A stretch of 64,000 nt of DNA from Eledone cirrhosa (lineage: Eukaryota), in contig OZ024754.1 in assembly GCA_964016885.1 (NCBI GenBank), forward strand, positions 39,928,001-39,992,000, written 5' to 3'. The translations under genes and the position numbers were made by a program. Every line of letters starts with the position of its first letter. Position 1 is the stretch's first letter. This document shows positions 1 to 43,932 of this stretch, piece after piece. The notes beneath the pieces were generated by a model. The model was not told the origin of the DNA. It searched no databases and worked only from the letters and a program-made list of their open reading frames with translations.

Positions 1-500
1 AAATAGATATTAAATGGTGAAATAGAGTTGTGAAATATATCTAATATAGAAGAAGAGTTTTTAATAAGAATAAAGTTTGAGAATGTATGAGATGTTTCGC
101 TAAATGACTACATATTTTTGTTTAATTTTCTTTTGTTATAATTTTTTTTTTGTTCATGTGTTTCTTTTTCATTCATTTTGTTTGTTTGTTTGGAAGTTTG
201 CGGAGGGAATATGAAGTGTAAGATATTTTCAAGTTAAAGGTTTGAAATACGAAAATAACTGGAAAACTTGTCAAGTTCCAGTTATTTGTCCTCTGTAAAA
301 TTCCATGGAATTTGTATGTATAATATATATATAATATATATATATATATAATATATATATATATATATATATATATATATAATATATATATATATATATA
401 TATATATATATAATATATATATATATATATATATATATATATAATATATATATATATATATATATATTATTATTATGTAATAAACAACATAAGGCAATTA

Positions 501-560
501 TTCCATTTACCAGTGGTTTCTTAAAAGCAAAAGGTTTTGCTTTCAATCCTCAGAATGAAA
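501..560 (-). ncRNA. Type-I hammerhead ribozyme (mirror of 635-694)
   Basis: Reverse complement of 635-694 within the palindrome. Confidence 0.85.
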
Positions 561-634
561 AATCCTGGTTTGTTTATTGAATATGGATTCTAAAAACGTT
601 TTTAGAATCCATATTCAATAAACAAACCAGGATT

Positions 635-694
635 TTTCATTCTGAGGATTGAAAGCAAAACCTTTTGCTTTTAAGAAACCACTGGTAAATGGAA
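635..694 (+). ncRNA. Type-I hammerhead ribozyme
   Basis: TTTCATT-CTGAGGA-[TTGAAAGCAAA acct TTTGCTTTTAA]-GAAA-CC act GG-TA^AATGGAA; all three stems pair. Confidence 0.85.
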
Positions 695-797
695 TAATTG
701 CCTTATGTTGTTTATTACATAATAATAATAATTAAGCTCTGTTGCTTACATAGAGCACTCTTTTTTCCTGGACTTTTCCGATGGAATTACTTCATTC

Positions 798-3700
798 ACA
801 CATATATATATATATATATATATATAATATATATATATATATATATATATATATATAATATATATATATATATATATATATATATATATATATAATATAT
901 AATATATATATATATATATATATATATGTACATATATACATATATATATACATATATATATACATATATATATATATACATATATATATACATATATATA
1001 TATATACATATAGATATATGTATACAGATATATATATTTATATATTATACAGATATATATATATAAATATATATATATATACATATACATATATAATATA
1101 TATACATATACATATATGTAATATATAATATATATATGTAATATATATATATATATACATATACATATATAATATATATATACATATACATATATGTAAT
1201 ATATAATATATATATGTAATATATATATATATGTAATATATATATATATATATGTAATATATATATATATGTAATTTATATATATATATATATATGTAAT
1301 ATATATATATATATATATGTAATATATATATATATATGTAATATATATATATATATATATATAATATATATATATATATATATGTAATATATATATATAT
1401 ATGTAATATATATATATATATATATGTAATATATATATATATATATATGTAATATATATATATATATATATGTAATATATATATATATGTAATATATATA
1501 TATATGTAATATATATATATATATATGTAATATATATATATATATATGTGATATATATATATGTAATATATATATATGTAATATATATATATATATATGT
1601 AATATATATATATATATATGTGATATATATATATATGTAATATATATATATGTAATATATATATATATATATATGTAATATATATAAATATGTTGTTATA
1701 TATATATATGTTATATATATAAATATGTTGTTATATATATATATGTTATATATATATATATATGTATATATGTTATATATATATATATGTTATATATATA
1801 TATGTTATATATATATATGTAATATATATATATATATATATGTAATATATATATATATATAATATATATATATATATAATATATATATATATAATATATA
1901 TATATATGTAATATATATATAATATATATATATATATATATATATATTATATATATTATATGTATATATATTATATATATATATATATATTACATATATA
2001 TATATATATATATATTATATATATATATATATTATATATATATATATATATATTATATATATATATATATTATATATATATATATATATTACATATAAAT
2101 ATATATTACATATATATTATATATATATATATATATATATATTATATATATATATATATATATGTAATATATATATATATATATATATATATATATATAT
2201 ATATAGACCAAAGAAAAATACCCAACATATCTCTCAATTTTTCTTCTTTTTAAAGTCTAACTCCCACATCACATGAAATATATTTCTAAACAGTTTCTAA
2301 CATTTTATTAAGGTGTTATTGGTGGGGTAGGGAAAAAGGTTTCCAAGAGTTTTTACATTTTCTAGTTAATTTTATATAGTTTAGGTTTTTGTGTGTATAT
2401 ATATACATTATATACATACACACACACATATATATATATATATACATATACACATATGTATATATATATATATATATATATATATATATATATATACACA
2501 CACATATATATACATACACATATATATGTGTGTATGTATATATATATATATATATATATAATATATACACACATATATATAAATATACACATATATATAT
2601 ATACACATATATATATATGTGTGTATGTATATATACACATATATATATATATATATATATATACACATATATATATACATATACACATATATATATACAT
2701 ATATATACTTACACATATATATACATAAACATATATATATATATATATATATATATATATATATATATACATACACACATACATATACATATCAATATAT
2801 GTATATGTATATACACATATATATATACACATATATATATACATATATATTAAACAAAATAATGGAGATATAGGTTGTTTACACTACTGTATATTTTTTT
2901 TAATTCCTTTTCGTTTTTTTTTTGTTTGGTTAAGAAAAAAGTGTTGCTAAAACAAATGTTACAGGGTGTAAATAACTAACCTAAATACACTATATATATA
3001 TACATATACAGTGTAACCCCAACATTAGTGGTCCTGGTTATTCGTGAATTTTCCCCAGAACCTAAACAATAATTTTTCGTGGAAGCCACTGTATATTCGT
3101 CAAATCGTAAATATCTTCCATATTTTTTAGGCTTTTTTCGTAGCAATATATATTTTTTCGCGCTTTTTAATGCTAAATTATTAATAACAATATATCATAT
3201 TTGCCGGCCTATATTTTACATATGTTTTGATGTATATAGGTATTTTTATGGAACATTTAACTCTTCACAGGTGCTCTATATACATGTATATATATATATA
3301 TATATATATATATGTATACATAAATATATATATAGACATATATATATATATATAAATATATATATATACATATATATATATAAACATATATATATATATA
3401 TACATATACATAAATATATATATAGACATATATATATATATATAAACATATATATATATATATATATATATATATAGACATATATATATATATATAAACA
3501 TATATATATATATATATATATAAACATATATATATATATATATAAACATATATATATAAATATATATATAAACATATATATATATATATATATATATATA
3601 TAAACATATATATAAACATATATATATATAAACATACGAAGGAGTCAGTTTTTTCAATAAGAAGTTATATTATAAACATATATATATATATATAAACATA

Positions 3701-4702
3701 TATATATATATATATATATATATATATAAACATATATATATATATATATATATATATATAAACATATATATATATATATATAAACATATATATATATATA
3801 TATAAACATATATATATATATATATATATAAACATATATATATATATATAAACATATATATATATATATATATAAACATATATATATATATATATATATA
3901 TAAATATATATATAAACATATATATATATATATATATATATATATAAATATATATATAAACATATATATATATATATATATATATATATATAAATATATA
4001 TATAAACATATATATATATATATATATATATATATAAATATATATATAAACATATATATATATATATATATATATATAAATATATATATAAACATATATA
4101 TATATATATATATATATATATATATATAAATATATATATAAACATATATATATATATATATATATATATATATAAATATATATATAAATATATATATATA
4201 TATATATATATATATAAATATATATATAAACATATATATATATATATATATATATATATATATATATAAATATATATATAAACATATATATGTATATATA
4301 TATATATATATATATATATATGTATACATATATATATATACATATATATATATATATATACATATATATATATATATATACACATACATATAAACATATA
4401 TGTATACATATATATATACATATATATATATATACATATATATATATATACATATATATATACATATATACATATACACATACATATATATACACATACA
4501 TATATATACACATACATATATATACACATACATATATATATATATATATATATATATACATATATATATATACACATACATATATATACACATACATATA
4601 TATACACATACATATATATACACATACATATATATATATATACACATACATATATATATATATACACATACATATATATAATATATATATATATATATAT
4701 AT
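798..4702. repeat. Compound (TA)n / (TACA)n microsatellite field
   Basis: Direct reading; source of the YI-rich spurious ORFs. Confidence 0.97.
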
Positions 4703-41929: not shown

Positions 41930-42475
41930 GTAATACTTTCTCATTATTATGCTAGTGTTTGGAACATAACTTAACCCTTTTTTTTATAATATACTTTATA
42001 GTAATACTTTCTCATTATTAAGCTGGTGTTTGGAACATAACTTAACCCTTTTTTAAAAATATACTTTATAGTAATACTTTCTCATTATTAAGCTGGTGTT
42101 TGGAACATAACTTAACCCTTTTTTTATAATATACTTTATAGTAATACTTTCTCATTATTAAGCTGGTGTTTGGAACATAACTTAACCCTTTTTTTATAAT
42201 ATACTTTATAGTAATACTTTCTCATTATTAAGCTGGTGTTTGGAACATAACTTAACCCTTTTTTTATAATATACTTTATAGTAATACTTTCTCATTATTA
42301 AGCTGGTGTTTGGAACATAACTTAACCCTTTTTTTATAATATACTTTATAGTAATACTTTCTCATTATTAAGCTGGTGTTTGGAACATAACTTAACCCTT
42401 TTTTTATAATATACTTTATAGTAATACTTTCTCATTATTACGCTGCTGTTTGGAACATAGCTTAACACTTTTATA
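41930..42475. repeat. 70-bp tandem repeat, ~7.5 copies
   Basis: GTAATACTTT recurs at 42001, 42071, 42141 and onward; the unit contains a TTAACCCTT terminus-like motif. Confidence 0.93.
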
Positions 42476-43394
42476 AAAATATTTCTAATAAAAGACATTT
42501 ATTGTTCTGGCCTTCTAACTCCAAACGTTTATATATATAATATATATATATAATATATATATATATATATATATATATATATATAATATATATATATATA
42601 TAATATATATATATATATAATATATACACACATGTATCTGTGTGTATATCATGACTCATAGACTGTTCACTTTCCTGACATTTGTACATTATTCTATGTA
42701 CTATACATGCACCTTTGATGAGTTGTAGTGCACCTGAGCACTGTACACAATAATTTCATTATTATTATTATTATTATTATTATTATTATTACTACTCACC
42801 AACACTGTTCTGGCCCCGCATGAGTTGTATACTCCTTGTCTTTTTATACCACTGCTGTAATCTTCTCTTGTCCTTTTAATTTGCTAACTGTATACCGCCA
42901 TTACCTAGGTTTAAAATAAACAGATAATAAATAAATAACTGATGAATAAAGAAATAAAATGTGAAACGTAAGAAATAATTCTCTGAACAACAAATATATG
43001 TCTCACCTCCCCCATCACCTCACCTCACACACCACCTCCACCTCCCACACCACCCCCACCTCACCACCACCACCACACCACCCTTATCTCGTCTTCCATC
43101 CTCACCCCACCCCGCCCTCATCTCACCTTTTCCCCCACCCTCACTATGTACCTGAAAAAAATCCATGCAAGCATGGAAAAGTAGCCGTGTGATAATATGT
43201 GTATGCATGTGAGTATATATATATATATATATATATATATATATATATATATACATACATAGATATATATGTAGGAGGTGAGTTTTATTGTAGCACAATA
43301 AAGCAATGCAAATATCGGATAAGTAGCACTCAACAGTTTATAGGACTGGAGTATAAATAATATAAAATCAAAAGATGGTTAAAAGAGTTCTATG

Positions 43395-43465
43395 TATTTT
43401 ATTATGCGCATTTCAAAAACAAATATCATCATGGGATGATATTTGCGTTCTCATCAGATAAAATA
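43395..43465 (-). ncRNA. Type-I hammerhead ribozyme
   Basis: TATTTTAT-CTGATGA-GAAc[GCAAATATCATC ccat GATGATATTTGT]TTTT-GAAA-TGCGCA-TA^ATAAAATA. Confidence 0.8.
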
Positions 43466-43539
43466 GGGAGACATGATATGAAGCTTAAAAAACAGTTGCG
43501 AGCAGTGAAGTGTTTTTTAAGCTTCATATCATGTCTCCC

Positions 43540-43610
43540 TATTTTATCTGATGAGAACGCAAATATCATCCCATGATGATATTTGTTTCTGAAATGTGCA
43601 TAATAAAATA
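43540..43610 (+). ncRNA. Type-I hammerhead ribozyme
   Basis: Mirror of 43395-43465; stem III ATGTGCAT. Confidence 0.8.
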
Positions 43611-43932
43611 CATAGAACTCTTTTAACCATCTTTTGATTTTATATTATATATATATATATATATATATATATATATATACACACACACATATATATATGT
43701 AAAAGGTAAATAGAAATAACAACACAATCGGTACAGTATATGGAAGGTATGTGTGTGTCTATATATATATTTATATATATGTTTGTGTGTATGTATATAT
43801 ATATCCAAACCTATGCTAGCGTGGAAGATGGACGTTAAACGATGATGATGATGATATATATATATATATATGTGTGTGTGTGTATGTGTGTGTGTGTGTG
43901 TTTTTCCTTTTCCTTACAACTCCACTCAGACC

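Follow-up and report, generated by a model that had tools for sequence, protein, structure and literature searches.

A 64,000-nt stretch of the Eledone cirrhosa genome (contig OZ024754.1, positions 39928001–39992000 of the 3.0-Gb assembly GCA_964016885.1; hereafter the window), which is 33% GC and crowded with (TA)n tracts, contains ten inverted structures, several of which carry hammerhead ribozyme motifs. These structures are 5'-truncated insertions, into (TA)n, of seven families of Hydra-type Penelope-like elements (PLEs) and of one non-coding retrozyme-like family; their assignment to PLE insertions is close to certain. Each of them probably represents a single 5'-truncated insertion made of two arms, one ending at a short (S) and the other at a long (L) fixed 3' end, which are joined by their 5' sides and would stem from twin target-primed reverse transcription on one template (we borrow the term twin priming from L1). 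That two primings took place, whether on one template or on two, is very likely.

All ten inverted structures listed in an earlier note on this DNA were recovered at their coordinates by self-BLAST, with simple repeats masked, and by direct inspection of the sequence (E values from 6e-10 to 3e-171). Eight are near-perfect palindromes, with arms of ~50–180 bp that are 80–100% alike; the structure at 13302–13841 has 127-bp arms around a 296-bp spacer, and the arms of the structure at 21476–21618 measure only 34 bp (E = 6e-10), the right one ending within the hammerhead core. The earlier intervals omit a tail of 65–130 nt by which one arm, and only one, is lengthened in each structure; three non-palindromic members, at 58480, 58781 and 58896, had been overlooked. 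We named eight repeat families by window position: F1 (43357), F2 (12844, with a relative at 21476), F3 (19675 and 36486), F4 (33841), F5 (465), F6 (39402), F7 (13302) and F8 (33401). The arms are as follows:

465–598, minus strand: F5 S arm, 133 nt, with a full hammerhead core (CUGAGGA), adjoining (TA)n; F5 is a young Hydra-type PLE.
597–796, plus strand: F5 L arm; 597–730 is identical to the left arm, the tail is 731–796 and the junction overlap is 2 nt (CG).
12754–13005, minus strand: F2 L arm, with tail 12754–12843 and arm from 12844; short tandem duplication at the junction; core CUGACGA.
13006–13182, plus strand: F2 S arm with a CUGAUGA core; next come (TA)n and a separate F7 insertion, tail-to-tail.
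13190–13713, minus strand: F7 L arm, tail 13190–13301, hammerhead near 13400–13460; continues into the tail of the preceding unit (13671–13713).
13722–13841, plus strand: F7 S arm, 119 nt, ribozyme core absent.
19609–19740, minus strand: F3 L arm, tail 19609–19674; the junction cuts the core.
19736–19801, plus strand: F3 S arm, full core; starts at the -65/-67 boundary of the family.
21290–21555, minus strand: L arm of the F2-related subfamily, full hammerhead plus spacer.
21585–21618, plus strand: right-arm stub of the F2-related subfamily, 34 nt, ending inside the core, outer end untypeable; a relative 26 kb past the window has a complete S arm.
33401–33468, minus strand: F8 S arm; the 3' 110 nt of the family have no CUGANGA core.
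33472–33624, plus strand: F8 L arm, tail 33539–33624.
33841–33898, minus strand: F4 S arm, with the GAAA/helix III half of the ribozyme only.
33898–34033, plus strand: F4 L arm, tail 33955–34033.
36486–36530, minus strand: F3 S arm, core absent.
36528–36660, plus strand: F3 L arm, full core and tail.
39402–39583, minus strand: F6 S arm with the CCGAUGA variant of the core, inserted at the TA end of a SINE-like (short interspersed nuclear element) repeat.
39573–39889, plus strand: F6 L arm, tail 39761–39889.
43271–43513, minus strand: F1 L arm, tail 43271–43356, full hammerhead.
43508–43648, plus strand: F1 S arm, full hammerhead; 6-nt junction overlap.
58480–58585: F3-related non-palindromic pair, S body 58480–58541 (minus) head-to-head to a tail-only piece at ~58547–58585 (plus).
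58781–58870: F3-related pair, S body (minus) and inverted tail tip (plus).
58896–59531: F1-related pair, complete inverted tail 58896–58986 (minus) ending at the S end and joined to a 545-nt S body, 58987–59531 (plus).

One arm per family served as a query against the assembly. The first look returned 922 (F1), 791 (F2), 92 (F3), 826 (F4), 907 (F5), 1752 (F6), 935 (F7) and 970 (F8) candidates; 40 per family were scored and 30 fetched. The fetched samples are biased toward copies resembling those of the window, and the F3, F4 and F8 queries contained junction letters, so that short palindromes are enriched in these families. Altogether, ~223 distinct insertions were examined, 130 of which have an inverted partner and two typeable outer ends (hand-curated).

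Tracing long copies upstream revealed, in seven families, a retrotransposon open reading frame (ORF) on the hammerhead strand. The F5 ORF is uninterrupted in L177 (4944–7073; G000:C1 ~319.43 Mb), L194 and L053, and encodes 710 aa comprising a reverse transcriptase (RT) and a GIY-YIG endonuclease, with YRDD at position 346 and VVYEA/YVGMT at 574/594; F1, F2, F3, F4, F6 and F8 have fragments of RT/GIY-YIG ORFs. The Hydra clade groups PLEs with a C-terminal endonuclease, and its listing includes Hydra-1_Obim from Octopus bimaculoides (PMC8557442). Our families share with it (i) an RT followed by a C-terminal GIY-YIG domain; (ii) the RWK and DKT motifs (positions 37 and 114 of the F5 ORF); (iii) the CxCX5C linker (CSCRKPDEC, 555) and the CxxC and CxH motifs around the E/N residues (CSLCITEK, 658, and CPH, 689); (iv) the absence of CCHH, no Cys pair being found between GIY and YIG in the F5 ORF; (v) a hammerhead in the 3' repeat and (TA)n targeting (PMC8557442), (TA)n insertion being seen in the flanks of the copies examined. 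The Neptune and Penelope–Poseidon clades were rejected, as CCHH with two Cys inside the GIY-YIG core is absent. Two further traits of endonuclease-containing (EN+) PLEs were found, namely the inverted copy truncated at its 5' side and the restriction of the tail to one end. Unlike the Hydra clade as described in PMC8557442, the tails measure 65–130 nt instead of 30–40 nt, and the F5 unit, at 4289 bp, exceeds the usual <3 kb because of a long, microsatellite-rich, low-complexity untranslated region, its ORF being of typical length. F5 tandems have the same 4289-bp period, with the tail continuing into the next ORF; they are partial tandems forming pseudo-long terminal repeats (pLTRs). F5 is very young, at least 40 copies on one chromosome being identical over 131 bp. 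Among 8000 scored candidates, 1339 homologues of the F5 ORF were found at E ≤ 1e-10, versus 23 Hydra proteins in the defining paper (PMC8557442). That paper notes Hydra-1_Obim, which we compared by its supplement entry, without a pLTR, whereas here a single genome holds at least seven families with 92–1752 first-look candidates each. In Pfam, the full F5 ORF was unmatched and the F1 fragment gave a weak GIY-YIG match (E = 0.024); the F5 ORF had no match in phages, solved structures or NCBIfam. Note that GIY-YIG fragments of other PLE types, with an internal Cys pair, lie near Hydra copies at L287, L295, L303 and L264, which indicates that several PLE clades share (TA)n sites.

The polarity is head-to-head, with outward 3' ends, in all ten structures, as the earlier note had proposed, including the two at 33.4 and 33.8 kb of which it was least certain. 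Independently of the ribozyme, longer copies of F1–F6 and F8 carry the RT/GIY-YIG ORF on the claimed sense strand; the polarity of F7 (13302), in which no ORF was found, is based on the hammerhead and the tail. We also surveyed an unselected sample of 264 kb (the window and 100 kb on either side) for neighbours less than 400 bp apart: all 20 same-family opposite-strand neighbours are head-to-head, and the four tail-to-tail neighbours all involve different families. At the targeted loci, every pair sharing a junction is head-to-head. The claim that the architecture is always head-to-head therefore stands per insertion but fails for neighbours, since tail-to-tail contacts exist between separate insertions: those of the window are split by (TA)n (13182/13190 and 33624/33837), and the same-family ones (L162, L236 and L261) are separate, more diverged copies past a (TA)n tract. 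A CAT-tailed retroposon that is not a PLE, taken as a polarity control, gave one head-to-head and two tail-to-tail close pairs among 29 ends, too few to be informative. Inverted pairs of this retroposon have outward 3' ends, tails at both ends and up to 95% identity (window coordinates ~-38051 to -36955, 119833–120654 and 131423–132206).

Every family displays two sharp 3' ends, S and L, the L end adding the 65–130-nt tail, which in tandems is the sequence continuing into the next ORF. Across the eight families, 126 of the 130 typed pairs combine one S with one L arm; one pair is L + L and three are S + S (p = 2e-32 against 0.5). Three S + L pairs resolved later come on top of the 130 (L185, L210 and L239), and all 20 head-to-head pairs of the unselected sample, 8 of which also belong to the 130, are S + L. 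Either arm can be the longer one: among the 116 pairs with measured extents, the difference exceeds 20 nt in favour of S in 27 and of L in 27, and long F5 pairs, which span up to 8 kb, have either arm up to 4 kb longer. Moreover, the partner consists of the tail only, sharing nothing with the body, in 16 of these 116 pairs; further tail-only partners are the three of the window (58480, 58781 and 58896) and one in L307. In four cases the tail-only partner ends no more than 10 nt from the S end (+1, +3, +4 and +10), a number too small to be significant. An arm-length correlation (Spearman 0.75, 15 long pairs) was left unused, as it is confounded by family and by dropped short arms.

The arms of a pair also share alleles. 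At non-CpG columns diagnostic of subfamilies, 13 of 311 arm comparisons over all families are discordant, versus ~135 expected for independent copies. The F5 arms have no discordance in 33 comparisons and differ at 13 of 10,152 columns; they have a minor allele in common at 38 columns, 17 of which show it in no other sampled copy. The arms of older families have drifted 1–8% apart. Judging from these columns, the two arms would come from one template lineage. At the junctions, F5 mostly displays overlaps of 0–2 nt or short inserts, and overlaps reach ~7 nt elsewhere. L178, a pair that did not insert in (TA)n, has a 12-bp target duplication enclosing its two arms, which are thereby identified as one event. 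In F4, ends joined straight to a piece of the ORF N-terminus (L202 and L210/L308) suggest template jumps within the RNA. In L011 (G000:C22 ~17.289 Mb), the S arm of an F1 palindrome is split by a DNA transposon-like insert of ~650 bp, which has terminal inverted repeats as well as a short direct repeat. The insert sequence resembles an IS1595/Merlin-type transposase fragment.

The following course of events would account for these features. The GIY-YIG endonuclease would cut both strands of the AT-rich target; one target 3'-OH would prime complementary DNA (cDNA) synthesis at L and the other at S on a shared template, which could be a single RNA region or a pair of pLTR copies within one tandem transcript. 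The two cDNAs would then be extended in converging directions, each ending independently of the other; the L-primed one would either end in the tail, giving a tail-only partner, or pass through the region copied from S, giving a palindrome. Their ends would finally be joined by 0–7 nt of microhomology or short filler, host repair filling in. As both 3' ends are fixed to target DNA, they point outward, hence the invariant polarity. The earlier note had envisaged a single integration mechanism, such as the priming of two cDNAs from opposite strands of an AT-repeat cut; both ideas are supported, the latter by the S + L rule and the tail-only partners. A biochemical parallel exists in PAc, a Poseidon PLE of Anolis carolinensis whose protein, a predicted dimer, cuts and extends both target strands in vitro, with RT starting at two RNA-internal sites that bound the tail (PMC11167929).

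Twin priming might have used two separate RNAs, one per subunit of a protein dimer. The overlapping arms of 2–3 kb require either strand displacement or two templates, and the predicted dimeric state of PAc (PMC11167929) fits such an arrangement. Yet the arms agree at 298 of the 311 diagnostic comparisons, and no F5 haplotype is discordant despite the existence of several subfamilies, so that, under a two-RNA scheme, both molecules would almost always have to derive from a single source locus. The four tail-only partners stopping near the S end, as if they had met the other primer on one RNA, point the same way, without reaching significance. We therefore regard two RNAs as unlikely.

Another alternative, whose cDNA form is also named in the earlier note, is fold-back or self-priming: a single strand, either antisense RNA or first cDNA, would pair with itself at a short internal inverted repeat and serve as its own template, the endonuclease trimming the product at S. 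It is the printed model for head-to-head polarity, in the form of antisense self-priming (PMC3846280), and it accommodates the shared alleles, the abundance of near-perfect palindromes (arms equal within 20 nt in 46 of 100) and the junction of 43357, which falls on a natural 7-bp inverted repeat of the element. It cannot yield tail-only partners (16/116) or an S arm longer than the tailed arm: since the copied arm must lie within the first one, no strand started at L could have given 43 of the 116 pairs, and one started at S would lack the tail altogether. Besides, the loop of near-equal pairs belongs to S in 11 cases and to L in 14, and most F5 junctions show just 0–2 nt of homology. Fold-back, contradicted by the tail-only partners, by the free choice of the longer arm and by the one-tail rule, is thus refuted as a general route; we hold it improbable as an overall explanation, a minority route being possible.

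Public sequencing runs reached a sequence share of ≤0.34 at best, none of the runs searched being an RNA run with the sequence, and four runs mapped on 39380–39880 yielded family copies that carry fixed differences and belong to a related organism, none of the pieces crossing the junction. Adjacent independent insertions, a later DNA rearrangement (inverted duplication or replication fold-back) or an assembly artefact are very improbable explanations. In their favour, elements are dense in the region, every insertion creates a further (TA)n target, some neighbours are tail-to-tail and the mapped reads left the junctions unspanned. However, independent insertions should show either polarity, combine different families and be separated by (TA)n, as the tail-to-tail cases are, whereas head-to-head pairs are of the same family, have a centre devoid of (TA)n and share haplotypes; DNA duplication or chimeric reads would put the tail in both arms or in neither; and the 1–8% divergence of older arms is unlike a read artefact.

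Several points weigh against twin priming on one template. Four pairs break the rule, L064 (L + L) and L146, L242 and L300 (S + S), although the tail of L146 is perhaps interrupted and L300 could represent two insertions; ~80 of the ~223 insertions are solo, tandem or run past the fetched DNA, and ~10 partners (L061, L077, L121, L138, L149, L170, L187, L191, L240 and L271) were untypeable and excluded from the S + L count. The arms are equal within 20 nt in 46 of 100 palindromic pairs, which a minority fold-back could also give; this fraction is inflated by the junction letters of F3, F4 and F8, the other five families having 16 of 56 pairs within 22 nt. One clear target duplication was detected among 112 short-pair loci and 10 long F5 pairs, a scarcity that we attribute to concealment by (TA)n. 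Gene conversion or assembly polishing between arms could account for part of the allele sharing, which cannot distinguish a single RNA molecule from two copies with a common source; more generally, DNA cannot tell one RNA region copied with strand displacement from two pLTR copies or molecules of one source. The PAc study saw no strand difference in RT start site (PMC11167929), which leaves the pairing of S with one strand and of L with the other unexplained. Finally, the mechanism is read from genomic sequence.

The hammerheads do not bear out all that had been claimed for them. The statement that a ribozyme often lies on each strand holds for four of the ten structures, which have a full core on both strands (465, 12844, 43357 and 39402, the last with the CCGAUGA variant in both arms and a broken helix I in the plus arm), and fails for the other six: the core is on one strand only in four (13302, minus; 19675, plus; 21337–21618, minus; 36486, plus) and on neither in two (33401 and 33841). 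A descriptor made of CUGANGA, helix II, GAAA, a 4-bp palindromic helix III, NUH and helix I detected minimal type I hammerheads in F1, F2, F3, F5 and F7, and in F6 with a U4C change, the resulting CCGAUGA core being present in 23 of 30 F6 copies (L057–L086; 39660–39722 in the window). It was unmatched in F8 and in one long F4 copy tested; long F4 copies have an apparent CUGA-GA core upstream. In Rfam, none of the hammerheads of the ten structures reached the gathering score; the sole hammerhead among the best 150 of 197 matches is an unrelated one at 51858–51902 (minus; 31.7 bits versus a gathering score of 34 for Hammerhead_1). Rfam microRNA matches were rejected as microsatellite-driven and below gathering scores. 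In single-sequence folds of isolated hammerheads, the active fold is not the minimum. Outside the ten structures, another hammerhead-like motif lies at 11772–11795 (plus), and L283 (G000:C28 ~30.62 Mb) is a tandem array of ~70-nt F3 units with a complete hammerhead in each. Type I architecture, a long helix II, an extra nucleotide after A9 and a short palindromic helix III are shared with the minimal PLE hammerheads of PMC4209133, where monomers with a short helix III are reported inactive and opposite-strand pairs 100–700 bp apart are already described in Schistosoma; the differences from what the accessible text of that paper describes are the family-wide core variants of F6 and F4 and the lack of a detected hammerhead in F8.

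The earlier note had also imagined that read-through RNA could switch kinetically between cleavage and long double-stranded RNA. The head-to-head layout implies that a transcript entering from either side makes the antisense arm first; in the three cases folded, the core pairs with this arm from the moment of transcription, and forcing the hammerhead costs 68–90 kcal/mol. Such immediate pairing, at such a cost, makes a switch unlikely, and the reported inactivity of monomers of this hammerhead type (PMC4209133) also speaks against one. By these folding calculations, read-through RNA, if made at all, would simply be a long hairpin, and the hammerheads would be passengers of the pLTR, sequestered by the antisense arm.

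F7 is a non-coding tandem unit of 478 nt with one hammerhead per unit (period 477–480 nt in at least 8 loci) and a longest ATG ORF of 26 aa. None of the 30 F7 loci reaches past -559 or into an ORF of its own, and only partial dimers occur among them. F7 nevertheless inserts like the coding families, with S and L ends, head-to-head inversion and (TA)n (window 13190–13841; L117–L146). A search for an autonomous parent found no mobilising ORF; a candidate next to L138 was rejected, as it is similar to F6 and probably served as the target into which F7 inserted. The non-coding tandem unit with a hammerhead is shared with animal non-LTR retrozymes (bioRxiv 10.64898/2026.07.22.740005). The accessible text of that preprint argues from phylogeny and co-occurrence, whereas F7 bears the PLE insertion signature, a structural sign of PLE mobilisation; the words 'tail' and 'opposite' are absent from this text.

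The 5' ends of short copies cluster at -163 to -169 in F1, -165 to -178 in F2 and -65 to -67 in F3. Long F2 copies (L148 and L167) have TATTTAT at -207 and TCACT with its A at -178; long F3 copies (L260, L263, L272, L274 and L276) have CCAAT at -150, TATAAA at -96 to -99 and CA at -66. In both families, the cluster thus lies ~30 nt downstream of a TATA-like box. Long F1 copies have TCAT with its A at -169 and a weak TATA-like word in just two of four copies, and F4 L214 is among the copies with a CCAAT and/or TATA-like box inside the pLTR. These motifs suggest that the clusters may reflect run-off where transcription starts within the pLTR; arms of equal length would be explained as well. No such fit was found in F5 (-132), F4 (-56, query-biased), F6, F7 or F8, and RT stalls or microhomology with (TA)n are possible causes as well. 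The boundary coincides with hammerhead helix I in F3 and lies 60–70 nt upstream of it in F1 and F2. Tentatively, and with somewhat less than even confidence, these observations could be joined in one scheme: both cut target ends would prime RT on one RNA at programmed S and L sites, the trailing cDNA displacing the leading one, which would unify tail, inversion, polarity and short pLTR palindromes; most short copies would prime near the RNA 5' end and run off at the pLTR start site (-169 in F1, -178 in F2 and -66 in F3, at initiator-like motifs); and the same machinery would move F7 in trans.

The window further contains a single-exon TMEM229B-like gene (PF06541) at 20698–21198 (minus), 96% identical to an Octopus bimaculoides protein, with a PLE L end at 21290, ~90 bp upstream of the gene start; a fragment of an RTE-like ORF of a long interspersed nuclear element (37584–38546, minus; labelled by eye); and, outside the eight families, short inverted repeats at 60860–60936 and 63420–63564, the latter with 34-bp arms around a (TA)n core.

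L1 twin priming reportedly (Ostertag and Kazazian, 2001) has both target ends prime on one RNA and yields a 5' inversion joined by microhomology; its second primer is said to anneal at variable internal sites, so that the parts barely overlap. In our families, by contrast, neither start site varies and the overlap between the parts reaches 3 kb.

The likeness to the inverted pLTRs of PLEs that the earlier note had pointed out is real, as the structures are themselves PLEs: an inverted 5'-truncated copy at the 5' end, a one-end tail and partial tandems are shared with EN+ PLEs such as D. virilis Penelope and Adineta Pen2a (PMC2377424, PMC3846280, PMC8557442 Fig. 2). Head-to-head is 'the most frequently observed' PLE layout, attributed to self-priming on an antisense template (PMC3846280), and the origin of tandem and inverted insertions has been called undefined (PMC8557442); PMC9977147, in its accessible part, is not relevant to inversion. 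The element class, the clade, the head-to-head layout, the one-sided tail and the opposite-strand hammerheads are thus already known. What the present analysis adds to the accessible passages of PMC2377424, PMC3846280 and PMC8557442 is counts on 130 pairs, tail-only partners, a free longer arm and shared haplotypes, the last three of which contradict the antisense self-priming of PMC3846280. PAc shares the cutting and extension of both strands of AT-rich DNA and the two RT starts bounding the tail; it belongs to another clade, and PMC11167929 draws no link to inversions and leaves later steps open. New, then, is the anatomy at scale: the S + L rule, tail-only partners, either arm longer and shared alleles. 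We found no paper reporting the S + L rule, tail-only partners or twin priming in PLEs in the accessible literature, most subscription papers lying outside this scope, so that absence from print is not established.

In conclusion, the observation itself is ordinary for PLEs, yet the counts make an open mechanistic question testable: they rule out antisense self-priming as the general mechanism and connect the structures in the genome with the two sites at which RT starts in vitro. The young F5 family, with its intact ORF, is a ready substrate for testing the mechanism.

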